A stretch of DNA of 64,000 nt, taken from Psammoneis japonica (Eukaryota). The stretch spans positions 434,001 through 498,000 of the forward strand of contig QPGO01000012.1 in assembly GCA_008632985.1 (NCBI GenBank), in the 5' to 3' direction. Positions 1-64,000 of this stretch are shown piece by piece. Under the pieces are notes generated by a model, which ran no database searches, was not told where the DNA came from, and saw nothing but the letters and a program-made list of their open reading frames with translations. Both the position numbers and the translations under genes were made by a program. Positions within the stretch are counted from its first letter, which is position 1. Each line of letters starts with the position of its first letter.

Positions 1-351
1 GCACTGAACTGTGCGCGATGCGTCAGAATTCGGATTGATGCGCACGATGATGCGTCTCGTGTTGCTCATCACAACACCCACAAAAACAGCTTGCAATGGT
101 GACACTCACAAAGATGGTCACTGTCCTCACATGTGTGACAGGTGTGAAGGGACTGCGGCATTGGGCGACATGCCCGAGCGTTTGCCCAACAATGTCGGTT
201 GACATGAGCGACACAGGACTGATCGCCCTGACGTCGGGTGGCTGTGTGAACCCGTCATCACAACACAGAGAAAGTGCAGCAATCATGACCATGCAGACTC
301 ACAGCTGCATGTTCCTGGTGTGGGACCTTTGTGCCCTTTCTCCATTGTGGG

Positions 352-1895
352 ATGGCAGCAGCGGCAGCACCAGCAGCAGCACTTGCGGCGTCAGCCGCGG
401 CAGCTGACGTTGACGCAGTTTTGCAAGTTTGTGGTGTTGCTGACCAGAACGCAAGGGCGAGGTTGGTCTTCCATGAAGGGTCCACGACTTTGGAAAACAT
501 CGCAGTGATGGAGAGTGACCACGATGTGGAAGATGTGGCACAGAGGGCGTCTCGTCGCACGGTGGCCGACGGATGTGTGACTCTTGGGACTGTTCAGATC
601 AAGAACTTACAGGCGCCAGTGTGGTGGTGCCAGGATTTGCTCAAACAGAATCAGCCATTGGTTGCGGCAGACTTTAATGCAGCAGCTGTGGCTGCGGCCC
701 GGGATGGCAGGCACATCGAAAAGGAGCGCACGGATTCGGACGCGTCGGTGAGCGGTCTCGTAAAGTTCAAGCCCGATGACTTCAATGTGTGCGAAGATGC
801 TTTCTTGAATCTCTTGGCACAGAAATTTGGCGTGTTGAAAGAACCCCTTGCCATGTCGTAAGGACAATGCCAGCTCCGGCTGCATTCACGGATGCTCAAC
901 AACAGTGCACGCACCAGATGCCATTGAATGGTGCCACATGTGACGAGGACAACCGCAGCGTTTGCCATGTGTTGAAGGAACACTTGGTCGACACGGCAGG
1001 ATGGGCATGGATTGAACCGTTTGACGCGACAGAAGACGGACGTGGAGCATTCAACACATGGGTTGACCATTGCAATGGACAGGGTGAGTTGAGCAAGCGC
1101 ATCCATCTGGCTGCGGGAACTGTTGAAACCTTGTTTTGTAAAAAGGAAGGATCGCTCCCGTTCGAAAAGTTCAATGAGAAACTTGCCAGTGCTTTCGCCA
1201 CTTTGAACAAATCACCGGACGACCGCAAATCTGAACGACAGAAAGTTGACATTCTTCTAAAAGGGATCCGAACGGATGACACTCGTCTCATTGCAGCAAC
1301 GGCTGTCATCAGCAGTCAGCACCCACGTGACTTCGCGGGGGCATGTGCTTGTTTCTCATCCGAAGTCTCTCATTTGCACGCAGGTGCTCAGTTGGAAGCC
1401 CGGCATCACTCGAAGCGCAAGATTTCTGAAATGAGCCGTGGTGGCGGTGGTGGCCGCGGTTTTTATCAAGGTCGCGGTTGCGGAGGAAGATTTGGACGTG
1501 GGGGTGGACGCGGACGCGGTGGTGGCCATCAAGGCAGAGGTGGCGACCACACTACGATGATCAATGGAGTCGATGCATCCAACCCCACAAGGAGCTTTAG
1601 TGCTCAAGAATGGGAAAAGTCACAGTGTGATGGAGGCATGAGCCACGTGTTCCAAGCTCGCGAACGAATGGGTCATGGACGCGGTGGTGGCCGTGGGTCT
1701 CCCGCAGGTCGACAAGGACGCGATGGGGGCGGCAGGCATGCAGCTGAAGCCCAAGTCCATCAAGATGGCCAAGGCCAAACCCAACAACAGGATCAGGAGC
1801 AAAGGAGCAGCGGGCGTGGACGCGGCGCTGACCGGGATCGCGGTGGACGCAATGGACGTGCCTTCGGTCGGGGAGCCTACAATGGTTCCACCTGA
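352..1895 (+). pseudogene. gag, frameshifted near 850-860
   Basis: ORF 331..861 continues in the frame of ORF 789..1895 (EPL/CHVVR junction). Contains the DGRGAFNTWVDHCNGQGE gag-like motif and a Gly/Arg-rich tail. Confidence 0.8.
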
Positions 1896-2099
1896 CTCCT
1901 TGGGGTGGCAACAGCCACTGGAGCATTGGCGCACTTGGTGCACTTGTCGTTTTTGCTTGTGTCACTCTTCTTGCTGTTGGCCAGGCCCCACCCAACATCT
2001 CATTTCAAAGGAAAGGCGACAAAGAGGCACATTGCCGTGACATCAAAACGTGTGATCCGATCGACGAGTTCTGCACAGATGACAAATTTGACGACACCT

Positions 2100-5000
2100 G
2101 GTTTGTCGCTCGAAATGAATGTGATGCTCACGCGGACACTTGTTGCGCTGGGGCGAACTGGAAGCTCATGGAGATGACAAATGAAGTGTGCGAGGTACAT
2201 CCATTTCTGGACTCTTGTGAGCCAATCAAACAGGTTCCTGTGGCATGTTGTTGCACCGCATGGACAGATCTGGAAACGACTCATGAACATTCACTGGTTG
2301 GTGATCAAATGCTCTGGTTTGGGACCGACATGGAACACTCACTTTTGAATCCTAACCAACTCCGTGCGCACAACACACCCGCACACGACAACCCTTGCGA
2401 CACCCGAAACGGATTTGGCATTGAAGCTGACGAAGCTTTCATCCCTTTCAATGCCACGGGGACAATTGTGTCTTTCAAGTCTCGTGTTTCGACGGATTGG
2501 GAAGTGCAGAACTTGCCGGTTGTGCTGTTGACAGGTGATGTGTGGGATCCAGCACAGATGGACATGGGCTTGCTGGAGCGCGCTAGAGAGCAGGCGGAGA
2601 TGCGCACTGTTTGATCATTGACCTCTGTCATGCGACAAGAACAGGTCTCGGAATTAAGGAGCGAGAAGGCAAAGTCCCAAGCAGCATGCTGGGGCGAGGT
2701 CGAAATGCAACTGTCGTCTGTGTCTCCCATCTGTCAACTTCAATCGTTTTGCAACAGGCTTGTCAGCTCAGTGAATGTGGCTTGTGCATGTCGCGACGAC
2801 GTGGACAAGAGGCAGAGGGCAGTCAAAGATTTATGTGGCAAGGATCGGCACTCAAAGGTTGACGCTGAAGAGCTGGCCCAAAAATGGAGTGTCGGTTTAG
2901 AAACAGCAAAAGATGCTCTCAATGCAACAACTCAGCGCGGTGTACGAATGGCGACCCAGCCGATGTCACGAAGAGTGAGGGTGGATCATCTTGACTTGCG
3001 TCGGAAGCATCTGAAAGGAACATGGTTTGTGGACACTTTGATGTCCAAGGTGAAGTCTTCACTCGGCAACACATGTGCCAATGTTCACACTCAGGGCAAA
3101 TTCGTGAAGGTTGTGCCGATGACCGCCAGGTCAGAGGCAGGTTTGTCTCTTGTTGAATTCACAGACGATGTGGGTGCACCAGAATGTCTCATGTCGGACG
3201 GGGCAGGAGAGTTCACAGGAAGGAGCACCGAATTTGTGAGACACGCACGACGCATGAGAGTGCAATTGAGAACATCAGAGCAGGGTCGGAAGAACCAGAA
3301 CCAGGCAGCAGAGCGCGAAATTGGTTTCTTAGCCAAACGTTGGCGGCTGCGGATGACGAAGAAGAAGGTGCCAAAGCGATCATGGGATTTTGGTCTTGTT
3401 TGCGAGTCAGAATTAGTGTCGCGCATGGCAAGAGGCAGGGATGAGAGGACTGGATGTGAAGAGGTCACTGGGCAGACACCAGAGACAGGCGAGCATTTGG
3501 ATTTTGGTTTCTACGATGTGGCATGGTGGTGGGACAGGCCCAACAAGCCGAGTGCAACTGACGATCCTCGAAGGCTTGGACGGTGGCTTGGCATCTCACA
3601 CAAAGTTGGCTCGGATGTGTGCCATTGGATCATTGCGGAAAGCGGGAAGATTGTCTCCAAAACATCGGTCGAGCACGTGACACAGGCTGACATGGTGCAA
3701 CCGGATGTTCGCGTCAAGGTCGACAACTTTAATGAGCAGCTGGAGAAGCGATTGGACGATGCCAACTTTGTCTTAAAAGGCAATGAAGCTGTGCCCGCAT
3801 TCATGTTGGACGATCTTGCAATTGACGGCAACCTCGGTGTGGAACATGAGGGTGGTGTCACGCCAGAGGACGAGGAACATGGCAACATGCTGTCACCCAA
3901 CGAGTGACCAGACGACGACAACGAGCAGGCAATCGATCAACACCTGGGAATGGAACTTGTGTTTGACATCGGAACCGACGGCGAGCGACGTGGTGTTGTA
4001 ACGAAACGTGCAAGAGGACAGGATGGGCGTCCAATTGGGACTCGGCATCAAAACCCATTGTTTGACACTCGCGGGTGCGAAGTGGAACACACCGACGGAA
4101 CCACAGACAAGCACACAGCCAATGTCATTGCCGAGAACATGTTTGCTCAGGTCGACAGTGAGGGCAACCAGTGTTCCATCTTACACGAGACACAGGACCA
4201 CGAGAGGAGTGACGATGCGGTGTCGGTTGCTGACGGCACCGCACGAACCGCTGACGGGAAGGAGAAGAAGAAGATCACAACAAAAGGATGGAAGTCATTG
4301 GTTGGATGGAAGGATGGCAGCTCATCTTGGGTCAAACTCAAAGATCTAAAGGACTCTGACCCCATTGAAGTTGCTGAGCATGCTGTTGCGAACAGGTTGA
4401 CGGAAGAACCTGCTTTTGCTTGGTGGGTCACACATGTCCCACGCAAACGGAACCGCATTGCATCCAAGGTCAAGAAGAAGTGCTGGCACACGACTCACAA
4501 GTTTGGGGTCCGATTGCCCAAGTCCACGGAGGACGCTTTGCGGATTGATCAGGAAACGGGGACAGATCATTGGGCTCGTGCAATCAACAAGGAGATGGCA
4601 AAGGCAAAGGTGGCATGGCGCGAGCACGAAGCTGAAACCCCTCAAGTCATCCGGGAAGGCAAGAGTGCAACTTTGCGTGGTTGTCAGGAGATCAGGTGCC
4701 ACATGGCACTCGACATTAAAATGGATTTCACCAGAAAGGCAAGGTTTTCAGCTGGCGGACACACGACAGAGGCCCCAGCATCGATCACTCACTCTGGTGT
4801 GGTTTCCAGAGACAGTGTGCGACTTGGATTCTTGTCAGCAGCCTTGAATGGTGTCGACATTGCGGCGATTGATCTGGAGAATGCTCATCTCAATGCACCG
4901 TGCGCAGAAAAGACATGGTTTGAAGGCGGAAAGGAATGCGGCGAGCACAAAGGAAAGGTGCTTGTTGTCACTCGGGCGTCACATGGCTTAAAGAGCTTGG

Positions 5001-6226
5001 GATGCTCTTGGAGGTCTGCACTGTCATCAGTCTTGCGTGACTCAGGCTTCGAATCGACAAGAGCGGACCCAGATGTCTGCTTGCGTGCGGCGACTCGTGA
5101 GGATGGGCATGAGTGTCATGAAATGCTTTTGGTTTGTGTCGATGACATGCCAATCATTTCCCATCAAGGGAAGTCTGTTGTTGCTGCAACAGGTGAACAC
5201 TGCACCGTGAAGCCCGGCAGCAAAGGAGAACCAGAAGCTCATCTTGGAGCTAACGTTGAGAAGGTTCAGACTCAGGATGGGCGCACAATCTGGGCGAGTT
5301 CACCGAGGTCACATGTCAAATCGGCGATTGAGACTGTGGAAGGCCCATTGGATGAAGACGGCAATGGAGAGGTTCTGAAGAACAGTGCAAAGGATCCACC
5401 ACCCCCAAAGTGCAAACCGGAACTGGGCGTGACGGACGAGTCAGGCCCTGACTTGGTGGACAGGCATTTGCAGCTGATGGGGATTTGTCGTTGGGCGATC
5501 GAGTTGGGTCGCATCGACATCTTGCATGAGGTTTCAATCCTATCTCAATGTCAAGCTAATCCAAGGAAAGGACATCTTGAGGCATTGTGTCACGCGTTTG
5601 CGCACATGAAGAAACACCAGAACGTCGGACGCATCGGATTTGATCCAAAGGAACCGGTGATTGATGAATCTATTTTCAATTCGAACGCAGACTGGACCGA
5701 GTTTTACGGGGACGTCGAGGAGGAACCACCGCCACGGGCACCGAAGCCTCGTGGCAATCCGGCAAACATCTGTGCATTTGTTGATGCTAACCATGCAGGG
5801 AATGTTGTCACTCGCAGGTTGCATGGCGGGACTCTGACATTCGTCAACAACGCACCAGTGGTGTGGTTCAGCAAGCGGCAGAACACGGTGGAATCGGCAA
5901 CGTTTGGAAGTGAATTGGTTGCGATGCGGATTTGCAAGGAATTGATTGTTGCTTTGCGTTGCAAGCTTCGTATGTTTGGGGTTCCCCTTGAAGGACCGGC
6001 AAGCATCTTTTGTGACAATCGCGGTGTTGCAAAGAATGCAAGTGCACCCGAGTCGGTTTTGCACAAGAAGCATGATGCCATCAACTGCCATGTTGCACGA
6101 GAAGCGGTCGCAGCGGGAATTGTTCGTGTTGGCAAGGAGGATGCGGAAACGAACTTGGCCGATCTACTTGCGAAGGTGGTCACAGGAGAGCGGCGATGGA
6201 AGCTTTGCTCGTGCATTTTTTGGCAA
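2100..6226 (+). pseudogene. pol (protease-integrase-RT-RNase H), inactivated
   Basis: In-frame TGA at 2612-2614 and 3905-3907. The RT catalytic YVDD motif reads CVDD. Only about 2 Tyr occur in about 1200 codons between 2618 and 6226. Confidence 0.9.
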
Positions 6227-7189
6227 TGTCCCGACACCAAGGCCAGGTGCCTGTGGCTCGTGCCCACGTATCGTGGCCTCCCAAGCCAGTGTGTCTGGTG
6301 GTTTAATTTGGGTTCTTGTGGTTTGCCTCTCTGTGAGAGGATGTTGCATGTTCAGACGAATCGGCACTGTCATTGCCGTTTCGCGGGGACCGAGTAAATC
6401 TGGATGGAGTGCTGTGTTGCAGTTGGTGATTGGTCAAGATGTGTGGATCAAGTGGTGCTGCAGCGACACGCTCACAATCTAATCAGGTTTAGGTTCGCAT
6501 TGTCAGTGTTGCCACTTTCCATTTAGACTTGAGGTGTTGTGCTTGTTCTTTCGTTGCATCGAGATTTGTTCGACAGCACTCTTGCCAGCTGCTGCTCAAG
6601 GCCAGCTTCAATGACAAGCTGGAGAATTTTCATTGGAGTTCAGCTGAACATGCTGGTGTTTAATGTTGTGCATCTGGCCATGTGATTCTTCACCTCAGAA
6701 AGAGAAAAAACAGAGTGTGGTGCAGTCAAACAAATGGACTCACAAGTTGGAATCTTTGGTTTCTCTCTGGCAGAAGGCACAGCACTCTGGCCAGCTGCTT
6801 TGAAACAAAGATTGCTGTGTTGTGCTTTCAGTCTTTTGTCTTTCTGCTTCCATTGAAAAAAGGTTTCAAAGAGTGTTTCAAAAGATTGAGGCACACCAAT
6901 GTCAAAAACTGACACACAGAAACAGGTCGAGTGGGGCAACATTGCCTCAATGCACTTGTTGGAAAAATGTGGCATGTTGCACAATTGCATTGTGGCAGGA
7001 GAGGTTCAGCAGCAAAATGGACTTGGCTGATTTTTGCACGGTGAAGTGCAGCAGACACAAGAAAAATGCTGTTTCATGTTCTCTCCAACTGGAGGGTCAG
7101 TTGAGATGGTTGACACCTTGTCAGAGATGTGAGAGCTTCTGCCATTGATGTCGGTCACTGTTGACATCATAAAAGCCGCAACGACATTC

Positions 7190-7755
7190 CAAAAATGCAA
7201 ACGAATTGTTGTCACACAAAAAAACTCAAAAATTTTCAGTTGTTGCCAGTCATCTGGGCACCATGTGTGCACTTTGAACTCATGCCCTCTCTCTCTCCCT
7301 CCTCCTTTTCCTCTTCCTCATCTTCAAAATTCTGAGCTGCCTGCATGACCAGACACATGCCTTCTCCTGACAATCCTCCAGCCACGTGCACAGGCAGCTC
7401 TTCATCAATCATGCTGGAAATGTGCTGGAACTTGTGCAGAATCCTTTGATGACACAACTCCATTTCCATGATGACAAGTGGAAATGAATGGTTCAATCCA
7501 GCCAGTGTGCATTGCACAAAACAACATGAAAGAGGGAATTCTCTTGATTCCCTCAATTCAATGAGCAACAAGCTGCAATGAGAAAAATGCAAACAAATCA
7601 TTGCCATGCAAAAAATTCAAAATTTTTCAGTTGTTGCAAGTCATCTGGGCATCATGCATTTGCTTTGAGCTCACGCCCTCTCTCTCTCCCTCCTCCATTT
7701 CCTCTTCCTTATCTTCACAAAGTTAGAGCCACCTGTGTGACTGGACATGTGTCCT
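7190..7755 (+). repeat. Diverged direct duplication (~7190-7350 and ~7580-7755)
   Basis: Shared AAAATGCAAAC...TTTTCAGTTGTTGC.AGTCATCTGGGCA...GCCCTCTCTCTCTCCCTCCTCC.TTTCCTCTTCCT.ATCTTCA. Confidence 0.85.
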
Positions 7756-10700
7756 TTCTTCCATTCCCACCACCTCCAGCCCAGTCCAATGGACACAGGC
7801 ACACACCTGCCCAAAAAGTGGCTTGCTTGCTGATGCACAGCAAAAACTCCCTTGGAAACATGTGGCTCTGCCATGAGACCACCATGACCTGTGAATCAAT
7901 TCCGGTCCTGCTGCAATCAAAATTGCAGGCAACAGGCAACCACACAATTGGACATCTGAACAAGTCAGTGCACTGGCTTAAACATGAAATTAGCTTGCCA
8001 GCTCCAGACAAGCCACACGTCGGACAAGCGCACAATGTTGCGGCAAGTCTCCATGCCATGCTTGACACAGGCCAACATCTTTGGCACACAAGCAGCTCTT
8101 TCATTGCCAGACCTGTCAGCAGCAATGCTGGCAGAATGCAGCACACCTTTCCCAGCAAACTTGCTGTCACTTTTGGCAAAGGTTGGTGTTGCAAAACAAG
8201 CTGCCAGTGCTCCAGGCGGTCTGGGTGCCTCACGGTGGCTGCTGTCAAGAACATTGGTGAAAGGCATGCCGCCGTTGTTTTCTTGGAATTCGAGCTGTTT
8301 TCAAGCATGCCCATCTCATTCAAGTGGTTTGCATCTGACATCATGGCACCAGGACACAATTCATGATTGCCAAGCCAGCCACACAACTGAAGAAATGTGC
8401 CTCCTTTTGCAATGTTGCCACCACAGCATGATGAACAAGTGATCCGCTGCAGCCATGCTGTGCAAGACTTGTGCAGGGGCACTCCAGCATTGCCCCATGA
8501 GATTGGTCATTTGTTTCTGCATTTCTAATTCCAGAGAGGGTCTTGCAGGTCATTGTCCTGCCTTTCAGAGCACACATGGGCCAACTCGCCTGCAATGCCA
8601 ACACCATCTCCAACTTGCTGCCGACAACACTGGCGATTGTTTCCTTTCACTTTGTTCCACATGAGGACATGGCAGCCACCATGGTGGGGACAGTTTCACC
8701 AAAGGCAAATTTGCAGTGGAGGAACCATTCCTCAAACCATGTCACAGTCAAGACATGCCAAGTGTCCCATTGCAAATGGCAATGGCATGACTTAGAAGCC
8801 TTTCCACATCAGCACAACCAGTCTGAGCTTTGACTTGGTGTGGTCACACCACTCCTTGTTGTGTGCACTTTCTTCTCACCCAGCATTGCAAAGCACTTGT
8901 TGGCAGGGGGCAGTTGCATGATGTGAACCCCGAGACCACTGGCCTCCAACAATTTGTTTGGGATGGCCTTCAAGTTTGCATCTGGGGCCATCACTTCAGT
9001 GATGCACTGCTTCTTGAGCCTCTGATCTGCCAACTCCCCTTCTGCTCCATCCTTTTTGCTGTCAATCTCAAGCTGTTCTAGCTGGACCAGCTTCTGATGA
9101 TCATTCCAGTCCAGTCACTCCATTTCTGCATTCTTCCTCTGGCTGCATGGTGGACTTGACTCCTGCCACCACAGGCATGCTGAACTTTGCAGCAGCAACA
9201 AAGCTTTGCTTGACAATGCCATCCTCGCCGGTTGATGTGCGCAGAAATCACTGTGCAGACAGACCGCCACTGTGATTCTCACTGCAAGTGGTGACACCCA
9301 ATCTGTTCCAAACCTCTGCTGATGCCCCATCCCTGAGCAGAGGTCCATGGAATTGGTTGTGATGTGGCAGAAGTTTTGCAGTGCAGCGCATGTGGCACAC
9401 CAACACATCATGCCTCTCTTTGGTTGATGCTTTTTGGGTGCATTCCTCTGCAGTTCTTCTTGTCTTTGGCATTGGAGCATTTGTGAAAGGGTTGATTTTG
9501 TTGCTCCTTCATCTGAAAAATGCACTTGTTTGTGGGGTTTGCTTTGTTGGCACTTGCTGGTTTGTTTGTGTTTGACTTCAGAGTGGGGAGAGAGACTGTG
9601 CATTTCAGCGCACCTGCTTGTGATGCCCAGACAATTTGCACATGTCAGGCCTGCCAGCCAACACAAAATGAGAGGAAGATGAGGGATGAGAAGGGATGGT
9701 GATGCAACCCACCAATGTTGTGGGTGCTTCCAGCTCCCAGTTGAAAGCACCAAAAACAAACAAGCACAGCAGACCAGACCAAAGTCAGCCAACAAAATGC
9801 ATGTGCAAAGGCAGCTGCAAGTTGCAAATGCACAAGGAAAAATCCAACAATTCCAAAGTGTGTGCCTTCCATGACCCTGCAGTCTCTCAAGCACCAGAAA
9901 TGAGGTGACTTTCATCAATGTTTCAAAGGTGTCTGTTCTTCTTGCCCTCTGCTCACTCCAAGATGCACAAGGGCCCTTTCTTTCAAACCACACAGAGGAG
10001 ATGCTGTCTGCATCATCATCTCAAAACTCTTGGCCCTCTTGCTGGCCTTTGCCGCCCCCTGGAGCACAACTTGTTCACAGCTTCACCCATCCCACCATGC
10101 CCCTTGTTCCATGCACCACTTTCTGGCTTGAAGCTCAGGCACAGTGGGCCCAAAGATTAACTTTTTTGACTGTGAAATTGCTTGCTTTGAATGATGAATG
10201 TAAAAAGGCTTCTAAAGGGAGCATTTCCTTGGTTGCAACAGAGCACATGTGGCAAACACCACACACAGAATGCATGCATCAAAAATTGCCTCTGCCAGTC
10301 TCCAACATGCAAACTCGTGTGTGAAGGACCACCCTTGGTTCACCCCAGCAATGCGCTTGTACAAATTCTTTGAGCTGATTTTTTCCATTGGCCTTTTCAT
10401 GGCAACCTGCTCATCTCCTGAACATGTTGCTTCTCCATGAAGCTGGGAGATCTGACAAAGACACTGCACATTGGACTCTTCTTTTTTCATGACCAAGGCC
10501 CAGCAACAATGACTGCAGTGTTGCTCTTGCTCTTCAATGGGTGCTTGGTGCGCACACTGCAATTCTTGGGAAGAAAATTTTGTTTGGCAGCACTTGTTTC
10601 CTGCTGCCATTGTTGAGACATCAACAATGGTGGCCAGTTGTGGATGACAGCTTGGGAGATCTGCAAAGCACAAGAAGAGGGTGGACAAGGTGGGGTGGCT

Positions 10701-10869
10701 CTCATCACAAATGTGCTCCATGGCATGTTGTTCCAACAAGCAATTTGGAAATGATGGGGCATCATCAAAAGAGGTTGCATGCCTCTTGCTTGCAAAGAGG
10801 CATCTTGGGCAACTCTTGCTCTTGAGCAACCCGGTCTGATGCCACAACAAGCACACTTCACTCTTGTGC

Positions 10870-52481: not shown

Positions 52482-52917
52482 GTGAGTGTTGAGGTGTTGC
52501 CTTGAATGGTGTCATTGTTGCATGCAATGCAAGCAGGCTTGAGAACGCACATTCAAACAAACACCGTCGATTCTAAAGGATGCCTTGATGCCTGCAACAC
52601 AACAGGGTGGTTGTCCGTGCCACCACCGACAAGTGAGAAGCCCTTGCTGGCAAGTTTGTCTGCCAAGTGGGAGCAGTTCTTGAGATGTGCTCGAGCATGT
52701 CAACACTTCCAATGGCACCCAGGATGGGGCCTGCGAAATGGTTGTCACTGAGATCAGGAAATCAAAGAGCTGCCCATGGCTGAATTTTTTTGGCGAACAC
52801 GTGCGCATTTGGTGCGGTGCATCCTCGTTTTTTTCAAAAAATTACGAGCTCGCAAAAAGACAGACACCTCTGCTTGCCGATCCATCCTTAAAAGTCGTGT
52901 GAATGCAAAGGGCGAGT

Positions 52918-54340: not shown

Positions 54341-56506
54341 GTTGGAAGAGAACAGACCAGTTTTTTGCTGCTTGCATGTGCCTGCCCACTCTCTCTAGAG
54401 AGCAGAGAGAGCCAGCTTCCTCGAAACAGCTTCATCATTTTTCCATGCGTGCACTTCTGGGGCAAATCCGTCACCACGCATCATGGCTGCTTTCATCTTT
54501 TTCAGCTTGGACTCGGATGGCACAATCTGAAGGGACGTCTCTTGGAACTCTTTGTGCACACTGGGAGATGCAAGCCAGAGAGAAAGAGCCACTCAGACAA
54601 CACCCACCAAACACTCAAGAGCCATGTGTTTGCCGGCCATCTTCTTGCCGTGCTTTTTGATTTCGTCCAACATGAGGGCCACAATTTTCTCACGTTCGTC
54701 ATCATCCATTTTCGACCCACCTTGATCTTCTGTCTCAAGCTTGAGCAAGACTGAAACTGTCTTTTTCCGAAATGCTGCCTTGTTTTCCTTGCTGGCAGCA
54801 AAGGCTTTCTCCGAGACTGACTTCATTTGCTCGTTGCTGTCCTGTGCCTTGATCTTGTCGTTCAATTCTTTTGTCAATCTGGCTTCCAACGCTTGAATTT
54901 GATTTGGTGCTTCTTCTTTTCGATTTGCACGTTGCCGAGTCGTTTGTCTTTAGCCCCGGGGCTCAAGCAGCAGAGATTTGTTTTGGAGTTGCTCGCGGTT
55001 TGTTGCTTGTGGTTGCTTTCCTTTCGCTTGGTTTGCCTGGCTGCATTCTGCAGTGTGTGCTTGCAAGAACAGCACTCGTTTGCTTGCGGAGTCTGTTCCT
55101 CCGTAAGATGAATTCCACTGCAGTCGGGAGATCGCTGCTTGCTGCATCGATGAAGGTGCAATCCGCTCTCAAGCTTGATTGGGAAGCAGCATCTTTCATG
55201 CAATTCCAGCAAACGAATGAGTTGGTTGACCTTGCGTGAGTTCAGAAAGCTGGGTGCATTCTTGTCAGACGACTTCCACTGGACAGCAAGTTTGAAAGAC
55301 ATTTGATCAATTGACGGCAGCATCTCTTGCATGGAATGCTCTTCAACAAAGAGAAATGGGAACCTGTCCTTTCGGATGTTTTGGTCGCAACAGAAGCATT
55401 TGTCACACTGCTGAGTTGCACTCTTTGGAGATTCTGCACCTGTGCATTCAAGGCTGCACCACACTTTGTTCCTTCAATCGCAACCAAAGAACTCCATGCA
55501 GTTTCCGCAAATGTGAGCGGACGTCACGCATCGTTCGAGTCTTCTGTTTTGCATGCTGACACAGCATGAGCCATTGCCATCTTGCAGTGGTTTCCCACTC
55601 TCGCTTGGCGTGGGATTCGGCAGAGGCGGTTGGGGCTGGTTTTGCACCGGTCGGCACGAGTCAAGGGTCATCTCGTGGTCCAGATCTGGCACTCTTGATG
55701 TTGACGGCGGTGGTGTGATGCGAAACATGCCAGTGGCATTGCACTCTGATTGCATTTCTGACGCGTTCCAGCCCTGGGGGGGACTCCGTGTGACATTGGG
55801 CCCGCAGAATTCCACGTGCGAGCTCCGCAGTGTGAGAATTTAATTGACGGATGCATTTGTCTTCAACATCAAATAAACGGCCAAGTTTGTGGTGCAATTG
55901 TGCCACTCACCACTCGACGTTTTTGCAAAAGTGCCTGCCCTGCGCAATTCTCAAGACATTGTAGAATTGCGCTGCAACAAAAAATGTCAAAAGTTGTTGG
56001 ATGGATCGCTCAATGAGTGCACCGTAAAATGATGCAAAATGTTGCAAAAATCATGTAGAAATCTACGTGCGCGACATGCGACGCGATTCAAAAAACTGTC
56101 GATGTCACAGTTCAGCAGTGCGAGGTCCCACCCAGACCTGGAACGCATCTTCTTTGGGATTGTCGACAGGATTCGGAAGAGGCGGTTGGGAGTCAAGGGT
56201 CTCCTTGTGGTCAACATCGGCCACTGCGATCATGGCAACCAATCTTGATTTTGAAGGGGTGTCATTGGTTCCGGTGCTGGAAGCATTCCGTGTGAGGTGC
56301 CTTCCACATCAATCATCTCCGCATCAGGCGATGCTTGAAGCACTTGCGATGCTTGTGACGAGGAGGACAAGCTGTCAATGAAAGCTGTGACAACATCTTG
56401 TCTACAGCAAGGTGCTTGAACAAACAGTGTGTTGTTTTCGTCGATGACGTCGCGGCTGTCATTCACACTGAACGAGTCCGCTTCGTCACGAGAAAGCGGT
56501 TGTGTC

Positions 56507-56782
56507 TGACAGAAATTGAAGGCAAATGGCAAGAATTCAAACAATGACTCCTCACTGCTGCCTAAACAGCAGATGAGTCTCCACTCAGAGACCGTCACAG
56601 GAGCCGAAAGACGTGTAAGTTGGTGTGATCGGGCTGCTGTTGTTGTTCTTGTGAGCCTTGTGGCTCGAAAGCAAACTACATCGCGCACGAACGCGCGGAA
56701 CCAAAGCACACAAAACTGTGCACGGCAAACTAAACAGCACGCGACATTTCGCGCGCACCCAAATCCTGTTCAAATCCTGTCA
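56507..56782 (-). repeat. 3' LTR (276 bp)
   Basis: Homologous to 59859-60026 and to the reverse complement of 60121-60396. TG...CA ends. Confidence 0.9.
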
Positions 56783-56793
56783 CTCCCCAGTTT
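56783..56793 (-). other. Polypurine tract
   Basis: Minus-strand AAACTGGGGAG lies immediately before the TGACAGG start of the 3' LTR. Confidence 0.75.
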
Positions 56794-56976
56794 GCTTGAG
56801 GAGTCACAGAAACAGATTCGACTTTGGATTGACTAAAGAACTTTGGAGTCAAAGCACCAAAACATGAGGAGACAAGAAAGGATCAAGATCCTAGAGCAAT
56901 GTTGCATTCTCCAAGTGGGTCATCTTGAGATGAGCTGCGTCTCCCCAATTGCAGATGCCATTGTGCTTTTCAAAGC

Positions 56977-58905
56977 TCAAGGCACACTTGGGATCTTGTG
57001 GGATTCCACATCCGCACTTGCAATGGAAGGAGCAAAGCTTGGTCTGGTTGACAATGTTGAACGGCGGGGCAACATCGCAGGACAATGCAAACAAGTTGAC
57101 ATCGCCTTCACTTCCTGAGCGAAGGTCGTAAAGACTGATGGCGTCTGTTGGTTCTTGGAATGGTTGCCACACTGGGCTGCTGCTAGAAAAGCAGAGCAGT
57201 GCTTGTGCAGGGTGGCATGGCATTTGCACGACTCGGGGAACAGAGCAAGCATGAGTTCAAAGGCACAAGCGGTGGTCTTGTGTTCCACCAATCTGATTGC
57301 AAGCTCAGCTGCATCTCCTGAGAGACTGATCCAATTGGAGAAACGAGTCTCAAGGTGCAAGCCTTCAGGGATCAGATTGGAGCAAGACATCTTGTGGTGC
57401 AAGGCTGCAGATGTCTGATTGGGGCAATGAGTCCCGTGCTGCAAGACTTCTGGGATCCAAAAGGACTTGCCAGTCTTGTGACACGAGTCTTCAGGGATCC
57501 AATCAGGAGGCCAAGTCTTGAGGTGCGAGACTTGGGGGATCCAATCAGGAGGCCGAGTCTTGTGGCGCAAGACTTGAGGGATCCAATCCGGAGGCCGAGT
57601 CTTGAGGTACGAGACGTGGAGGATCCAATTGGGAGGCCCGGTCTCGAGGCACGAGACGTGGAGAGTCCAGTTGGGAGGCCTGGTCTCAAGGCACGAGACT
57701 TGGGGCATCCGATCAGGAGGCCCAGTCTCGATGTACGAGACTTGAGGCATCCGATCAGGAGGCCTGGTCTCGAGGTACGAGACTTGGGGGATCCAACCAG
57801 GAGGCCCAGTCTCGAGGCACGAGACTTGAGGCATCCAATCAGGAGGCCTGGTCTCGAGGCACGAGACTTGGGGCATCCAACCAGGAGGCCCAGTCTCGAG
57901 GCACGAGACTTGAGGCATCCAATCAGGAGGCCTGGTCTCGAGGTACGAGACTTGGGACATCCAACCAGGAGGCCCAGTCTCGAGGCACGAGACTTGAGGC
58001 ATCCAATCAGGAGGCCCAGTCTCGAGGTACGAGACTTGGGGCATCCAATCAGGAGGCCTCGTCTCGTTGTGCGATGCTTGGAGGATCCGAAGACAACAAA
58101 GCTGCTTGGATGTCCTGAACTCCCCATCTGCTGATGAACCGGTTGAACTGTTGTGAACAGATTCAATGACAGGAAAAGGAGGCTCCCTGTCAGGAGATGC
58201 GAGAAGCAAGTTGTCATCTCCATCACTTCCCAAACGAAGACTGTGAAGGGTGACAGCGGTCGACACGTGGAGGTTGGCAGCACATGGTTTGCGGGGTGCA
58301 AAGGCTGCAGCTTTGGAAGCCATGGGTGGAGTGTCCCAACTGGTCTCGAAGTGCGGGCCTGCGCAAGGGCTGCAATCCTGCACTGGGCCAAGGTTGCTTG
58401 TGGGCGGGTTGGTCAAGACATGCGGGGCGCAACTGACACCACTTCCAGGGGACACCTGAGTGGCGGCACAGTGCAAGGCTGGTGTCAAAATGGCACTGGG
58501 TTCACCTGGTTTGGATGGCAAGGGACTTGGCACAGGTGCGGAGGGTGCTGCGACAGTGGCTAGAGAGGTCAAGCAGTCCGGACCAAGGCGGCAGTTGCGA
58601 AATTCCTCGGGTGTGAGCAACTGGGGTTCATTGGTCACATCATCACCGTTGCAAACTTTGACAAAGCAGAAGCTGATCAAAGCTGCCAGGAGGTTTCTGT
58701 GGGTCCGTGGCAAAGGCACTGCATTGGCGCCGTCTCTGTGAGTGAGGGCGTCAATTTGGGTGGGTGAGAATGTGAACAATTCCTCACACGATTCAATCCC
58801 GTTGATGGACAGGGCAGAACGAAGAGGGCTGTCATCATCTTGATTGAGCACAGTGCCTAGAATGTATTTGAAGCTTTCAGTTTGTTGCTGTCGCGTGAGA
58901 ACCAT
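56977..58905 (-). CDS. Gag N-terminus fused in frame to a 14-aa repeat array (probably non-functional now)
   Basis: MVLTRQQQ...SPLR..L is homologous to the gag at 61332, followed by (ETRPPDWMPQVSYL)n. Confidence 0.55.
   Translation of the reverse strand: MVLTRQQQTESFKYILGTVLNQDDDSPLRSALSINGIESCEELFTFSPTQIDALTHRDGANAVPLPRTHRNLLAALISFCFVKVCNGDDVTNEPQLLTPEEFRNCRLGPDCLTSLATVAAPSAPVPSPLPSKPGEPSAILTPALHCAATQVSPGSGVSCAPHVLTNPPTSNLGPVQDCSPCAGPHFETSWDTPPMASKAAAFAPRKPCAANLHVSTAVTLHSLRLGSDGDDNLLLASPDREPPFPVIESVHNSSTGSSADGEFRTSKQLCCLRILQASHNETRPPDWMPQVSYLETGPPDWMPQVSCLETGPPGWMSQVSYLETRPPDWMPQVSCLETGPPGWMPQVSCLETRPPDWMPQVSCLETGPPGWIPQVSYLETRPPDRMPQVSYIETGPPDRMPQVSCLETRPPNWTLHVSCLETGPPNWILHVSYLKTRPPDWIPQVLRHKTRPPDWIPQVSHLKTWPPDWIPEDSCHKTGKSFWIPEVLQHGTHCPNQTSAALHHKMSCSNLIPEGLHLETRFSNWISLSGDAAELAIRLVEHKTTACAFELMLALFPESCKCHATLHKHCSAFLAAAQCGNHSKNQQTPSVFTTFAQEVKAMSTCLHCPAMLPRRSTLSTRPSFAPSIASADVESHKIPSVP
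57430..58065 (-). repeat. 42-bp tandem array, about 15 units, degenerating toward lower coordinates
   Basis: Unit ~CGAGG(T/C)ACGAGACTTG(A/G)GGCATCCAATCAGGAGGCC(CA/TG)GTCT. Confidence 0.95.
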
Positions 58906-59858
58906 GACGGAGGACGGTGCAGCAGAAACAAAAGACAGGAACCAATCTAGAGCGCGATCTTGACTCGGAGTTTTGACTTGGAACTTGGCTTGAAAAAGAC
59001 TTGACTTGAGCTAGACTTGACTTGAAATCTTGGACTGTCTTAAAATCAGAAGTCGCCGGGTTGTGCTATCCCGTTCGTAGCCATGTGCTGAACTTCCTGT
59101 CCGGTCTGCAGAGTTGTGCCGGCACGTCCGAACCCGCAGCTGGCGATGCTTTGGGTTGCTTGCGAGCGGAGTAGCGGGTTGTAAACCCCTGCAGGTGAGC
59201 TGACCAGAGGTGGACAAGACCCCCGAACCGTTCTCATTTTATGTCGGTTGGATTTCCCGATCAGGCTGGCCAGTTGATGTGGGCGTTGGGCGCTGTGGAC
59301 GAACTGACAAACGCCGGAAAACACCCTCGCCCCAACGCAGGCTGCAATCACGGCTGCTTGCTCTCACAGTCGTCCTCGTGGACCCAGTGGGACTGTGGAG
59401 CACCAGCAGTCCGGGGTAGATCAGGTGCAATGGACTCGGTGTGCTTGTAGAGTGGTGGCAAAGCCGCAGTCCAAAGAGTGGGTTCAAGTTCTCGGCCGTG
59501 AAGATGTGCACATGTGTGTGTCTTCAGCGACCAAGATCCTCAAACATGCAGGGTTCTTGACCGTTGGCTGTTGAATGGGTGTGTCAAGGGATGAGGATCA
59601 AGGATGGACTTGGACACAACCGTTGAATGCATGTCTTCAGCGACAAAAGGTGGCACAATGAATCAAGACATCCAGCGACAAGGAGACTTGACGGCGACAT
59701 TAAATTCCTGCCGATGCCTGGCATTGAATGCATGCAGACTTGCCGATGTACGTAGAACACACACGGAGGTCCGCGCAGAATTGAAATGGCGTCGTCGGCA
59801 AATCAACGACGACGATGGCGGTTGCTCAATGGGTTGACAATGAGCAAGACTGTCAATC

Positions 59859-60026
59859 TGACAGAAATTGAAGGCAAATGGCAAGAATTCAAACAACAAC
59901 TCCTTGCTGCTGTCTAAATGGCAGATGAGTCTCCGCTCAGAGACCGTTGCAGGAGCCGAAAGACGTGTGAGTCGGCACAATCGGGCTGCTTTTCGCGCGC
60001 ACCTAAATCCTGTTCAAATCCTGTCA
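59859..60026 (-). repeat. 5' LTR of the left element (about 108 bp deleted internally)
   Basis: Both termini are shared with the other two LTR copies; the middle segment is missing. Confidence 0.88.
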
Positions 60027-60120
60027 GCGTCCATTGTGGTCTCCTGGTGAGGGAGTTTCGGAAATTCCAAAACTCTCTTGGCCAATTGTGCGCAGCAATG
60101 CAACAAACTTTTGTTTGTGA

Positions 60121-60396
60121 TGACAGGATTTGAACAGGATTCAGGTGCGCGCGACATGTCGCGCGCTGTTCAGTTCACCGCGCACAGTTTTGTGTGCTTT
60201 GGTTCCACGCGTTCGCGCACGATGCAGTTTGCTTTCGAGCCACAAGGCTCACAAGAATGATGACAGTGGCCCAATCACACCGACTCACACGTCTTTTGGC
60301 TCCTGCAACGGTCTCTGAGCGGAGACTCATCTGCTGTTTAGACAGCAGCAAGGAGTTGTTGTTTGAATTCTTGCCATTTGCCTTCAATTTCTGTCA
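60121..60396 (+). repeat. 5' LTR of the right element (276 bp)
   Basis: TGACAGGATTT...AATTTCTGTCA, the reverse complement of 56507-56782. Confidence 0.9.
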
Positions 60397-63300
60397 GATT
60401 GACAGTCTTGCTCATTGTCAACCCATTGAGCAACCGCCATCGTCGTCGTTGATTTGCCGATGACGCCACTTCAATTCTGCGTGGACCTCCGCATGTGTTC
60501 TACGTACATTGGCAAGTCTGCGCGCATTCAATGCCAGGCATCTGCAGGAATTTAACGTCACCGTCAAGTCTCCTTGCCGCTGGACATCTGGATTGATCAC
60601 ACTGCTTTTCATCGCTGAAGACATGCATTCAACGGTCACATCCAAGTCTGTCCTTGATCCTCATCCCTTGACACACCCATTCAACGGTTGACGGTCAAGA
60701 ACCCTGCATGTTCAAGGATCTTCGTCGCTGAAGACATGCACATGCATGTCTTCACGGCCAAGGACTTGAACCCACTCTTTGGACTGCGGCTTTGCTGCCA
60801 CTCTACAAGCACACTGAGTCTGTTGCACCTGATCCACCCCAGATTGCTGGTGCTCTGCAGTTCCACCAGGTCCACGAGGACAACTGTGAGAGCAAGCAGC
60901 CGTGATTGCAGCCTGCGTTGGGGCGAGGGTGTTTTCCCGCATTTGTTCGTTCATCCACAGCGCCCAATGCCTGCGTCAGCTGGCCAGCCTGATCGGGAAA
61001 TCCAACCGACACAAAATGAGAATGGCTCAGGGGTCTTGTCCACCTCTGGTCAGCTCACCTGCAGGGGTTTGCAACCCACTGCTCCGCTCGCAAGCAACCC
61101 AAAGTGCCGCCAGCTGCGGGTTCGGACGTGCCGGCACAACTCTACGGACCGGATGGGAAGTTTAGCACTCAACAACGAACGGGATGGCACACCCCGGCGA
61201 CTTCTGATTTTCAAGACAGTTCAAGATTTCAATTCAAGTCCACTTCAAGTCAAGTCCATTCTCACCCAAGTTTCAAGTCCACCTTCGCGTCCCAACAAGA
61301 ATCGCTTGTCCTGACACCGCTTTTGTCTGTCGTGGTTCTCACTCGTCAGCAACAAACCGATGGTTTCGAGCACGTTGTTGGAACCATGCTTGCCCAAGGT
61401 GCTGGAAGCCCTCTTCGTTTGGCTTTGACCCATGACGGCACGGACTCGCACCAAGAACTGTTCACGTTCATGCCGTCCCAAATCAACTCGCTTGAGCACG
61501 ATGACGGCATTGATGTGATCCCTTTGCCCCACGGTTATAAGAACATGTTAGCAGCTCTAGTTAGTCTGCACATTGTCAAAGCACACAAAGGTCTCGACGT
61601 TGCCAATGACTCCTCGTTGTTCACGCATGAGGAGTTCCTTGCCTGCCGCCTCAGCCCCGACTGCATGTCTTCTGTGTCCGTCGGCAGCTCGCCCCTCGCA
61701 CCTCCGCATGTCACCAACCCGACCAAGGCACGCGACCCAGTGCAAGACTTCAAGCGAGGCATCAAGCGTGACCCCACCGCTTTCACAGCTCTCAAATCCG
61801 ACAAGCAGTGGCACACTTGGCACACCTCACTTGTGGCACAAGCCCGTGCCCAAGACATTGAGTGCATTCTAGACTCGTCGTACAAACCGTCCAGCCCTGA
61901 AGACAAACTGCTCTTTGCTGAACAGCAAAAGCACATGTTCGCCGTCTTCGAATGCATCCTTCTCACCGACAAGGGCAAGGCTCTCATTCGCGAAAATGTG
62001 GGGTCTTCTGACGCCCAGACCGTCTGCCACGCCTTGTCCGAGCATGCGCTTGCCTCCACCCGCGCTTCCATCGAGTCCTCCACCTTGCTCACGTGCCTCA
62101 CCACCGCACGTCTTGGTGATGGCACTTGGAAAGTTCCGATCCACGGGTTCATCCTTCATTGGCAAGATCAGTTGCGCAAGTGCAAGGCACTCATCCCGGC
62201 CAGCGACCACTTCTCTGAAGGACAGAAGTGCGTCATGCTCGAGAATGCCGCACATCCTGTCGAGGAACTCCGCGCCGTCAAGAACCAAGCTGATCAGCAT
62301 CACACGCAGAGTGGCAAGAGCCTCACATGCGATCAACATTGTGGCTTGCTCCTCTCCGCGGCGGCTCAATGCGACAGTGCGTTTCAACCCAAGACGACAC
62401 CTTGAGCTCCCCGACGCACCATGTGCGCACATGACGTCTTCTCCGAGGAACCATCCGATGATGTGTTCTGTGACATCGACAGCGACATTGACGTCCTTCA
62501 GGCCAACGCTGCCTGCACCCGTGGTCCCAGCCTCACCGGTGACCAATGGAAACGTCTCCCTCCCGACCACCAACAGATTTGGGATTCGTTGCCCCATTCC
62601 TCCAAGGCGATCATCCTTGAGCATTCTCGTCCGCCTCCCCGCAACCCGCAAGCCAGCAACCACCATGAGTCCATTGCGGCCAACCTTCACGACCAACGAC
62701 TTGGGAGTGACGGTGATGTCAACTTGTCCAACACGACTCCTGCTGACTCTGGTGACCCTGCTCCAAATGTGGGTGCCACTTCAGACAATCCCATTCTGGC
62801 GCACCTCACCAAGTGCAAGCCACTGCCACCCGGTGATCTGCAACACCTGTTGTCTCCCAACCAAGCCCCCAACGCCAGTCGACCGGGCCCATCCGCCAAC
62901 TCCCTCTACCTCGCCTGCTCCTGCAGATGACATGGAACTCAACGGCCGCACTTGCCGCCGCGTCAATGACCACAATGTCATTTGCTCTGCCTCCGCTCAT
63001 CGCTCCACATGCACTGGTGCTCTGGTCCATCGTGGAGCCAACGGCGGCATTGCTGGTGACGACGTTCGCGTCATTGCACGCACCTCTCGCCAAGTCGACG
63101 TTCAGGGCATTGACGACCATCAATTGGTGGACATCCCCATTGTCACTGCTGGTGCCGTCATTGAGACACAGTGTGGTCCCGTCATCGCCATCCTCCATCA
63201 GTGCACATGCACGGGAAAGGGCAAGACCATTCATTCCTGCGGCCAGCTCGAATGGTGCAAACATGATGTCAACGATCGCTCTGTCACGGTGCCCAACGGC

Positions 63301-64000
63301 TTGCAATGTGTCGCCACCCCTGATGGCCATGTCATCCCAATTGACATCAAGGGCGGCCTGCCTCATGTTGCCATGCGTCCCTGCACTGACGCCGAATGGG
63401 ACACCCTGCCCCATGTCATCCTCACCGGTGATGACACATGGGATCCTTCCGTCCTCGATCACTCCATCACTGATGACGACCAGTGGTGCGACGCGATCTC
63501 TGACCTGCAGGACGATCCCACTGCCAACCCATTTGACGAGTGCGGCAACTGCCGTCACCGTGTCGTTGTCAACAAGGCCATCATGTCCGCCTCCTTGTCT
63601 GCTGATCACGCGTCCATCCTCGATGACCACCTCATTCCGAATGACGACGTGTTCTGCGAGTGTCATCTACACGCGATTGACCCCAAGGACGACAACGTTC
63701 CGCCCCCGGAGCGCACTGTGCAGCCCAAGGACCCCCCCTGCGAGTCTCTTCGGCCTCACTTTGGTTTCCAACCTGCCGATGCGGTTCGTCGTACTTTCGA
63801 CTGCACCATGCAGTGCGCCCGCATGCCCGCCGGTGCACACCTTAAGAAGGCCCACAAATCGCCCAACCCCACCCTTAATGTGCACCGCCGCAACGAGCCC
63901 ATCACCACTGACACCGTTTGTGCCGACACCCCGGCCGTCGACTCTGGTTGCACCAGCGCCCAACTGTTTGTTGCCACCGAGTCTACCGTCACTGACGTCT
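60121..64000 (+). mobile_element. Degenerate Ty1/copia (CoDi-like) element: LTR, long leader, gag, protease and start of integrase; runs off the window
   Basis: gag starts at 61332 (GTG in place of ATG) with DFKRGIKRDPTAF and FILHWQDQLR. Protease reads ALVHRGANGG (normally LVDRGANGG), then LPHVILTGDDTWDPS and HRRNEPITTDTV. Stops at 62403 and 62928. Tyr->Cys/His throughout. Confidence 0.92.

Follow-up and report, generated by a model that had tools for sequence, protein, structure and literature searches.

What removes almost every TA dinucleotide from the transposons and repeats of a nuclear genome, and leaves TA several times denser in the genes between them? This question is raised by a stretch of 64,000 nt from contig QPGO01000012.1 of Psammoneis japonica (positions 434,001 to 498,000, numbered here from 1 to 64,000 and called the window), in which a degenerate Copia retrotransposon, a satellite and several repeat relics have lost nearly all TA. 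A preliminary description of the window had proposed a mutator that converts TpA to TpG or CpA in repeats, and had stated that no named pathway does this. We conclude, with a probability of about 0.85, that a real, DNA-level, TpA-specific and repeat-directed mutational process lies behind the TA loss. To our knowledge, the eukaryotic repeat-directed mutators known until 2026, as well as the decay of methylated CpG, all acted on cytosine. The statement on pathways has nevertheless been overtaken, as the same spectrum was measured de novo in Bigelowiella natans, where TpA>TpG/CpA hypermutation hits integrated viruses (Mettrop et al., bioRxiv 10.64898/2026.01.13.699255, 2026).

TA is lost in sharply bounded blocks

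The whole window contains 1255 TA, which corresponds to an observed/expected ratio (o/e) of 0.30. The o/e values of the other relevant dinucleotides were 1.45 for CA (n=5730), 1.43 for TG (n=5756) and 0.74 for CG (n=2849). A two-state segmentation of the TA counts per 100 bp divided the window into the following blocks.

1-13500: TA-poor block, 59 TA, o/e 0.07
13501-15800: gene block, TA o/e 0.47
15801-20100: TA-poor block, 16 TA, o/e 0.05
20101-32200: gene block, TA o/e 0.53
32201-33200: TA-poor block, 3 TA, o/e 0.05
33201-48300: gene block, TA o/e 0.55
48301-64000: TA-poor block, 92 TA, o/e 0.10

The four TA-poor blocks (34.5 kb) hold 170 TA in sum and the three gene blocks (29.5 kb) 1085, that is 4.9 versus 36.8 TA per kb, a 7.5-fold gap. 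These values bear out the preliminary description for the repeats, which it had reported as stripped of TA on both strands (o/e 0.05-0.10 with matching TG and CA enrichment), and its manual count of roughly 35 TA in the first 6.2 kb (34 in the first six 1-kb bins, 38 in 1-6400). Its statement that the neighbouring genes are normal in TA stood only in part: they are 7.5-fold denser in TA than the repeats, but their o/e is about 0.5 and not 1. TG and CA reached o/e values of 1.4-1.95 in the TA-poor blocks versus 1.13-1.22 in the gene blocks, and the excess of TG equalled that of CA in every TA-poor block. ApT stayed flat, with 0.81-1.11 in TA-poor DNA versus 0.91-1.02 in genes, and GC content was 0.47-0.58 across the affected blocks.

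The transitions between TA-poor and gene blocks were narrower than about 100 bp. Near 13500, not a single TA was found from 12604 to 13540, followed by one every 10-90 bp; near 15800 the final TAs lie at 15787, 15871 and 16226, and near 48300 they lie at 48317, 48454 and 48794. With TAA and TAG erased, TGA is the sole stop codon left, and TA-poor DNA therefore carries long open frames on both strands: 63 stop-to-stop open reading frames (ORFs) of at least 130 aa were counted in its 34.5 kb versus 38 in the 29.5 kb of the gene blocks.

The Copia element records the direction of change

The best characterized TA-poor element lies at the start of the window.

1-6400, + strand: degenerate Ty1/Copia-type long terminal repeat (LTR) retrotransposon, diatom CoDi-like, 38 TA, TA o/e 0.11, CpG o/e 0.85
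2615-6397, + strand: Copia polyprotein frame, 1261 codons with 2 in-frame stops

The frame showed full-length homology (E = 0) to diatom Copia polyproteins, including entries named after Fistulifera, Chaetoceros and Fragilaria, and two sets of 229 and 1707 homologues were obtained, with best identities of 61-67%. Pfam recognized only RVT_2, and this barely, with E 1.5e-8 and a score of 35 bits where 31.6 is the cut-off. The frame encodes 3 Tyr (0.2%), with Cys at 3.3% and His at 3.9%, while the medians of its relatives were 3.6%, 1.2% and 2.7%, respectively (120 longer homologues listed). The catalytic YVDD motif of the reverse transcriptase reads CVDD in the window and, together with the two in-frame stops, predicts a catalytically dead copy.

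Columns of the homologue alignments with at least 70% agreement were taken as conserved. Against 40 homologues, the window copy retained 349 of 437 conserved columns overall but 2 of 23 Tyr columns (Fisher p = 5e-14), the lost ones having become His (11), Cys (8), Ser (1) and Val (1). In an alignment with the 20 nearest homologues, at 62-67% identity, 416 of 516 columns were retained versus 1 of 23 for Tyr, replaced by His (11), Cys (10) and Glu (1). Gly, Trp, His and Arg columns were retained to 94-100% in both alignments. The other eroded residues followed the patterns Ile to Val, Thr, Ala or Met, Leu to Ser or Pro, and Val to Ala; these are the losses expected if TA became TG or CA within the codons ATA, TTA, CTA and GTA or where two codons meet.

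For a substitution spectrum, the 67 of 88 mismatched conserved columns that can be reached by one base change were polarized by the homologue consensus.

TA>CA: 25.0 of 67
TA>TG: 12.7 of 67
other A:T>G:C transitions: 4.0 of 67
CpG changes: 6.0 of 67
other G:C>A:T transitions: 1.0 of 67
transversions: 18.3 of 67

Changes of A:T to G:C thus amounted to 41.7 of 67 versus 7.0 of 67 in the opposite direction, and 37.7 of the 41.7 occurred at TpA. This strong excess agrees with the earlier proposal that A:T>G:C transitions occur specifically at TpA (37.7 of 67 as TA>CA or TA>TG, 4.0 as other A:T>G:C changes). The 18.3 transversions are probably ordinary divergence from the elements of other species.

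The relatives were employed as a reference for an unaffected state. From 289 pattern matches in metagenomes, searched with a pattern that contains no Tyr, 147 Copia loci were confirmed and 80 kept. All 80 had TA o/e values of 0.44-0.92, and none of their 671 1-kb windows fell below a TA o/e of 0.25, versus 66 of 127 in our window. Tyr made up at least 1% in all of the 120 longer homologues listed and at least 1.5% in 119 of the 120 near homologues listed. Of 150 cluster representatives, three were Tyr-free with raised Cys and His (Logan: P0342 and P0352; JGI/IMG: P0328), and one more Tyr-free relative occurred among the 120 near homologues (P0463, ENA). The contig that encodes P0328 lies outside the set of 80 metagenome loci. 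In these, the motif RALYGL reads RALCGL or HALHGL, and YVDD reads HVDD or CTDD, so that the same footprint appears, as far as the translated motifs tell, to be present in a few other public records.

These comparisons bear on the view that the elements are TA-poor by nature, either through an intrinsic composition or through selection, for example for avoidance of a TA-specific nuclease or integration target. Such a cause would suit a trait common to all repeat kinds. We regard it as next to impossible, since conserved Tyr residues were replaced, YVDD was destroyed, two stops lie in frame, the relatives are ordinary in both Tyr and TA, and repeat copies diverged from each other by exchanges of CA and TG after their duplication (see below). 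Intact copies poor in TA and Tyr were not what the comparison brought up: the relatives were normal in Tyr and the window copy is the one that appears dead. The TA deficit thus looks mutational and not compositional.

Repeat copies decayed separately and in place

The last TA-poor block contains several repeats whose copies can be compared with each other.

52917-54350, + strand: tandem duplication within the TA-poor block, unit of about 716 bp, 91.4% identity
56505-61673: inverted-repeat/satellite region, TA o/e 0.15, CpG o/e 0.71
57305-58186: 42-bp satellite, adjoining the inverted repeat
58564-59986 versus 60269-61673: inverted repeat arms, 82.9% identity over 1397 bp, inner 943 bp 89.6%

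Besides the inverted repeat and the tandem duplication, two short pairs were compared; these four non-overlapping repeat pairs gave 2416 aligned bp, with differences at 355 positions of which 261 were transitions. Between the copies, 61 adjacent CA/TG swaps were found, 14 of them in the tandem duplication and 24 in the inner inverted repeat, while any other adjacent double difference occurred at most 5 times. Such a swap arises when an ancestral TA or CG is hit twice and independently. The 53 retained and 52 half-retained CpG sites predict about 6.4 swaps of CpG origin, which leaves about 55 for TpA. TA therefore decayed separately in each copy, in place and after the duplication. If the hits are taken as independent, a rough estimate is that each copy has mutated at about 93% of its TA and about 33% of its CpG sites since it was duplicated. 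The TA rate would then exceed that of CpG by a factor of about 6.6 and, per base, that of other transitions by a factor of about 90. The satellite shows the change in progress: among 14 monomers, columns 13-14 read CA in 7, TA in 5, TG in 1 and CG in 1, and are thus caught in the middle of the conversion.

The same copies speak to the possibility that the changes arose in RNA, by ADAR-like editing (ADAR, adenosine deaminase acting on RNA) of UA in double-stranded transposon RNA that was then fixed by reverse transcription and integration. The best characterized TA-poor element is indeed a retrotransposon, and ADAR favours a U 5' of the edited A (10.64898/2026.01.13.699255, Discussion). Nevertheless, the tandem duplication, the inverted repeat and the 42-bp satellite carry independent CA or TG outcomes at the same sites, and the most depleted blocks are relics without a retroelement signature. 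On the sense strand of the Copia element, His (11) and Cys (8-10) replaced Tyr to a similar degree, and single-stranded genomic RNA would not yield both. ADARs are also not known from diatoms. As the tandem duplication and the satellite are affected and both products stand on the Copia sense strand, editing of retrotransposon RNA is not the main cause; we rate it as very unlikely.

Separately assembled contigs reproduce the TA-free DNA

An artefact of sequencing, base calling or polishing where TpA is modified was also considered, a risk to which the preliminary description had pointed. Three runs (X1, X2 and X3), all from one sample and one study, were available, no RNA run was listed, and run X1 contained 95% of the sampled words of 10001-20000. 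Separately assembled Logan contigs of run X1 were aligned to 1-16000.

7153-10248: X1 contig, 1 difference, word depth 64-69
10220-12820: X1 contig, 0 differences, word depth 64-69
12803-16000: X1 contig, 1 difference, word depth 64-69

These contigs reproduce 6.3 kb of TA-free DNA at about 65x. Run X2 gave little coverage of 1-16000 except for a contig of 1922 bp that was exact over 13654-15575, and in run X3 no contig matched 1-16000. That the runs stem from one sample with an unrecorded library type leaves an artefact some room. It is nonetheless exceedingly unlikely in our view: the separate X1 contigs agree with the window, and exact contigs of 2.6-5.4 kb at about 65x across TA-free DNA are unlike noisy reads. 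Moreover, at 61 sites within 83-91% identical context, one copy has CA where its partner has TG, and a context-driven miscall would recur instead. The Copia frame is open over 1261 codons with clean Tyr to His or Cys replacements and no indel noise, and Tyr-free Copia fragments (P0342, P0352, P0328, P0463) exist in other public records.

Over the Copia element, the summed contig depth was 1400-2700 versus about 65 for single-copy DNA, which implies tens of related Copia copies. The longer X1 contig pieces differ there from the window by about 14-21%. The kinds of change were A>G 234, C>T 250, G>A 232 and T>C 199, with 17-28 for each transversion. The view of sequence contexts covers 40 of the 1105 variant places and, for the contig pieces, 16 of about 2600. 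The 22 best-supported places were put in context and 21 of them fell in the Copia region. Among these 21, 9 were CpG versus TpG or CpA, at 2 the window has CA where all other contigs have TA, and two adjacent ones form a single CA/TG swap.

A counterpart in Bigelowiella natans

In mutation-accumulation lines of B. natans, two integrated viral regions accounted for 231 of the 302 single-nucleotide mutations seen in nuclear DNA; 230 of these 231 were A>G or T>C, all at TpA according to the authors, and the rates were about 1000 times the background, in 11 of 15 lines (10.64898/2026.01.13.699255). The same genome contains 324 TpA-poor coding sequences enriched for reverse transcriptase and DDE domains and 124 clusters of TpA-poor, CpA+TpG-rich windows, and an adenosine deaminase resembling ADAT2 (ADAT, adenosine deaminase acting on tRNA) is the authors' candidate effector (10.64898/2026.01.13.699255). 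Diatoms are not mentioned in this preprint (0 occurrences; 10.64898/2026.01.13.699255).

The likeness is threefold. Changes of A:T to G:C occur only at TpA and give TpG and CpA (here 37.7 of 41.7 at TpA), discrete blocks of foreign or mobile DNA are hit and the rest is ordinary (here within one window), and the resulting TpA-poor, CpA+TpG-rich footprint includes DNA bearing reverse transcriptase. There are differences as well. The host is a rhizarian there and a diatom, i.e. a stramenopile, here; de novo mutations were observed there and a fixed footprint here. The targets are inserts of nucleocytoplasmic large DNA viruses (NCLDV) as well as of virophages there versus a Copia element, satellites and anonymous relics here. 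In B. natans, the NCLDV region has a Rho of 0.45 and the virophage region is not depleted, while here o/e values of 0.04-0.15 were found in every repeat block seen. For the diatom, the flank hierarchy and the rate relative to CpG decay were estimated in addition.

Within the literature collection covered here, a full-text search gave this preprint as the single relevant work and no description of a TpA-erasing footprint in diatoms. For Phaeodactylum tricornutum, the available part of a mutation-accumulation report describes an ordinary GC>AT bias with CG, CC and TG, not TA, as mutagenic contexts (PMC6604790), and to that extent lends no support to a TpA process in this model diatom. A survey of diatom DNA methyltransferases (DNMT) relates DNMT4 to fungal RID and, in the sections available, reports no mutational footprint (PMC9998398).

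We read our finding as the same kind of process as in B. natans, in a second eukaryotic lineage. The presence of a second and distant host with a much deeper footprint means that the process is not confined to one alga or to giant-virus inserts, with ordinary transposons, satellites and old relics as its targets. The effector could then be found by comparative genomics, among genes common to both hosts and missing from TA-normal diatoms. There are practical consequences, too. Gene callers turn hypermutated DNA into Tyr-free "proteins", of which P0342, P0352, P0328 and P0463 are already public, and profile searches nearly miss hypermutated elements, as the E-value of only 1.5e-8 for RVT_2 shows. 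A natural TpA-specific A:T>G:C activity on double-stranded DNA would also be of interest to base editing.

CpG decay, targeting and a modified base

The remaining parts of the large TA-poor blocks are mostly old and anonymous.

6401-13500: old repeat relic without recognizable protein, TA o/e 0.04, CpG 0.16, TG 1.92, CA 1.84
15801-20100: TA-poor repeat relic, 16 TA, TA o/e 0.05, CpG 0.33
48301-52000: TA- and CpG-poor relic, TA o/e 0.05, CpG 0.13, TG 1.95, CA 1.88
61701-64000: GC-rich (0.58) TA-poor block continuing past the window end, 8 TA, TA o/e 0.08, CpG 0.89

Pfam gave no match for 11 ORFs of 6401-13500 and for 6 ORFs of 15801-20100, no credible match for the ORFs of 48301-52000, and nothing credible besides RVT_2 for 37 ORFs from the TA-poor blocks. 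The deepest TA loss of all blocks was found in the relic 6401-13500. GpC was raised in the oldest relics (o/e 1.34 in 6401-13500 and 1.41 in 48301-52000), and this excess could be a secondary marker of the process, via GTA>GCA and TAC>TGC.

CpG was low in part of the TA-poor DNA, with o/e values of 0.13-0.33 in 6401-13500, 15801-20100 and 48301-52000, and near intact in other parts where TA is gone, with 0.85 in 1-6400 and 0.89 in 61701-64000. As TA was erased where CpG is almost untouched, the TA loss is not a by-product of the decay of methylated CpG. The decay of CpG runs beside it, separately and more slowly, and the nine places with CpG versus TpG or CpA indicate that CpG decay also acts in the Copia element, whose CpG o/e is still 0.85. 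Among the best-supported X1 differences, CpG losses private to the window Copia copy were seen at 316, 574, 749, 784, 2687 and 3856.

Two classical systems are thereby set apart, in agreement with the preliminary description, which had held that neither of them can remove TA. Repeat-induced point mutation (RIP) of fungi is also a transition-only hypermutation of repeated or mobile DNA that leaves a dinucleotide footprint and spares the neighbouring genes. However, RIP changes C:G to T:A, mostly CpA to TpA, and so makes TA and lowers GC, whereas here TA was destroyed and GC went up. RIP furthermore needs duplication. The Copia element is multi-copy here, but the most depleted stretch, 7153-13500, lies in contigs at a near single-copy depth of 65-69. 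The preliminary description, with its label "inverse-RIP-like", implied such a dependence, to which these depths lend no support. Deamination of 5-methylcytosine (5mC) resembles the present process in that a palindromic pyrimidine-purine dinucleotide turns into TpG or CpA in silent DNA; it acts on C, however, and cannot remove TA, and TA loss was about 6.6 times faster in the same repeats.

Since the near-single-copy stretch 7153-13500 is the most depleted, present-day repetition is not required, although this block may still have had further copies at the time of its mutation. In the simplest reading, silent chromatin or a signal for the recognition of transposons would direct the process, and not the current copy number. 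A passive origin by an ultraviolet "TA photoproduct" or by missing transcription-coupled repair was rejected, as AT-rich spacers in the gene blocks keep dense TA, for example at 31231-31700.

The targeting also bears on a competing explanation of the mechanism within the same mutational process, which the preliminary description had raised as well, namely that TA loss is a by-product of a symmetric base modification of TpA, on A or T, in silent chromatin, which decays or mispairs as 5mC does. A palindromic target with two products equal in number fits this, as do domain-like blocks with sharp edges and the classical CpG decay in the same domains; the strong depletion of the near-single-copy stretch suits a chromatin mark better than homology sensing. 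On the other side, no TpA-specific DNA modification is known to us in diatoms, although no search was aimed at one, and with an estimated rate about 7-fold above CpG decay and about 90-fold above other transitions, TA loss is fast for a spontaneous reaction. The B. natans process was on in only 11 of 15 lines, which its authors read as regulated activity (10.64898/2026.01.13.699255). The sequence alone does not separate decay of a mark from an active deaminase. Taken together, we consider a pure by-product of a modified base conceivable but rather unlikely.

Surviving TA and the proposed process

The 170 TA that survive in the TA-poor blocks were compared with the TA of the gene blocks for their flanking bases.

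ATAC: 1 in TA-poor blocks, 87 in gene blocks
ATAT: 1 in TA-poor blocks, 91 in gene blocks
ATAG: 0 in TA-poor blocks, 47 in gene blocks
GTAT: 4 in TA-poor blocks, 88 in gene blocks
TTAA: 28 in TA-poor blocks, 48 in gene blocks
TTAG: 26 in TA-poor blocks, 56 in gene blocks
CTAA: 18 in TA-poor blocks, 42 in gene blocks

With both strands pooled, TAT was 0.15-0.35x as frequent among the survivors as among gene-block TA, TAAA 3.0x and TAGA 2.6x. The apparent hierarchy of loss is ATA/TAT before GTA/TAC before YTAR, with ATA/TAT nearly gone and YTAR surviving most. Part of the surviving TA may be newly created. On the question of which base pair is hit in which flanks, Tyr codons offer 22 cases, too small a number for a pattern, and trinucleotide gains relative to the gene blocks are confounded by composition.

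Known adenosine deaminases provide a chemical precedent. Enzymes of the ADAR and ADAT/TadA type convert A to inosine (I), a base read as G, and favour or need a U or T on the 5' side; tRNA deaminases act in a U33-A34 context. They differ from the present case in that their natural substrates are RNA and that no such gene lies in the window. On the 3' side, the order of preference in our data (T > C > G, A) also deviates from that of ADAR, which favours a 3' G. As the preliminary description had stated, the window contains no evident effector: Pfam detected no deaminase or methyltransferase gene among the ORFs of the TA-poor and the gene blocks.

All three checks that the preliminary description had named as able to refute it (separate reads, the state of the relatives and the substitution spectrum) came out in its favour. 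We propose the following process. The TA-poor blocks consist of transposons, satellites and old remnants of repeats in the nuclear genome of a diatom. In these, one base pair of a TpA step was changed from A:T to G:C, in place on DNA, producing TpG or CpA with equal probability. The lesion would be enzymatic. Neighbouring genes were spared, and a near-saturated long-term footprint has built up on the repeat DNA. Its consequences are the erasure of Tyr codons and of TAA and TAG stops, the destruction of catalytic motifs, a rise in GC and long false ORFs. Since TpA is palindromic, the lesion base, A or T, is not readable from the sequence. For the chemistry, adenine deamination (A to I, read as G, in 5'-T context on either strand) is the route that we favour most, with odds somewhat short of even; a modified A or T in silent chromatin that decays or mispairs, and any other route, are each a little less probable and equal to one another. 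The probability given at the outset applies to the core process and not to a particular chemistry. A dedicated mutator serving genome defence may be behind this process.

More tentatively, diatoms and chlorarachniophytes might share a chromatin-guided TpA editor, by descent within the SAR group (stramenopiles, alveolates and rhizarians) or by transfer. This editor would deaminate adenine, or attack a marked thymine, at TpA in double-stranded silent DNA; in the present host it would be constitutive, several-fold faster than CpG decay and the main transposon killer. We think that this idea is more probably wrong than right. If it holds, a comparison with TA-normal relatives would name a natural TpA-specific A-to-G editor of double-stranded DNA, and TpA editing would be the chemical mirror image of fungal RIP.

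Several points weigh against the process proposed here or narrow its reach. One window of 64 kb was examined, so that terms like "all repeats" or "genome-wide" are extrapolations, and its gene blocks are lowish in TA as well, with an o/e of about 0.5 rather than 1. The polarity of the Copia changes comes from a protein consensus of elements from other organisms (47-67% identity) and not from DNA of the same family. The 18.3 transversions mark some of the mismatch as ordinary divergence, which is the main weakness of the polarization. Run X1 probably derives from the very sample of the window, with the library type unrecorded, and so offers an independent assembly but not independent DNA, and the view of paralogue contexts covers just 40 of the 1105 variant places. 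Decay was uneven: at 2925 and 5203 the window has CA where all 11 and 9 aligned paralogous contigs, respectively, have TA. In the repeat pairs, 9 TA/TA pairs survive versus 0.66 expected under a single rate, from which it follows that some TA sites are refractory. Finally, a fixed footprint was seen, with no sign of present activity, of an enzymatic cause or of a benefit to the host.

Other features of the window

The top matches of the BT1 transporter encoded in the window are diatom proteins, at identities of up to 76%, and those named come from Cylindrotheca, Chaetoceros, Coscinodiscus, Attheya and Pseudo-nitzschia; on this basis the host is a diatom. The gene blocks and the small TA-poor island contain the following features.

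13501-15800, + strand: spared 2.3-kb island between two TA-poor blocks, TA o/e 0.47, CpG 0.92
13598-15352, + strand: ORF of 584 aa inside the spared island, no Pfam match
20101-32200: gene block, TA o/e 0.53, CpG 1.03
25263-26381, + strand: BT1 transporter ORF
27423-28304, - strand: scramblase-like ORF
28969-31233, + strand: patatin-like ORF
32201-33200: isolated 1-kb TA-poor island within gene DNA, 3 TA, TA o/e 0.05, CpG 0.45
33201-48300: gene block, TA o/e 0.55, CpG 1.01
36570-37874, - strand: GH16 ORF
38315-40000, - strand: DUF1501 ORF, E 1.2e-33
40214-42880, - strand: DUF1800 ORF, E 1.3e-42

For the ORF 13598-15352 in the spared island, protein-kinase-like clusters came up in an Atlas feature search with a score of 0.98 and 220 shared features; we take this as no more than a lead. 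The island 32201-33200 is located between the patatin-like gene and ORF 33340-34650. Repeats, terminal repeats, a target-site duplication or a Pfam match were not found in it, and it may be a small old insertion.

The GC-rich block 61701-64000 gave no Pfam match and may be a further LTR-element fragment. The Atlas lead for this block consists of diatom hypothetical proteins, with one cluster carrying gag_pre-integrs in 34% of its members at low recognition. A DUF1501+DUF1800 pair is typical of bacteria such as planctomycetes, and the two neighbouring ORFs (38315-42880, - strand) may represent an old horizontal acquisition. ORF 44157-45179 (- strand) has a weak PT-repeat match and contains imperfect tandem repeats of 36/84 bp at 44763-44984. 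These repeats are ordinary in TA and code for a repeat protein of low complexity.

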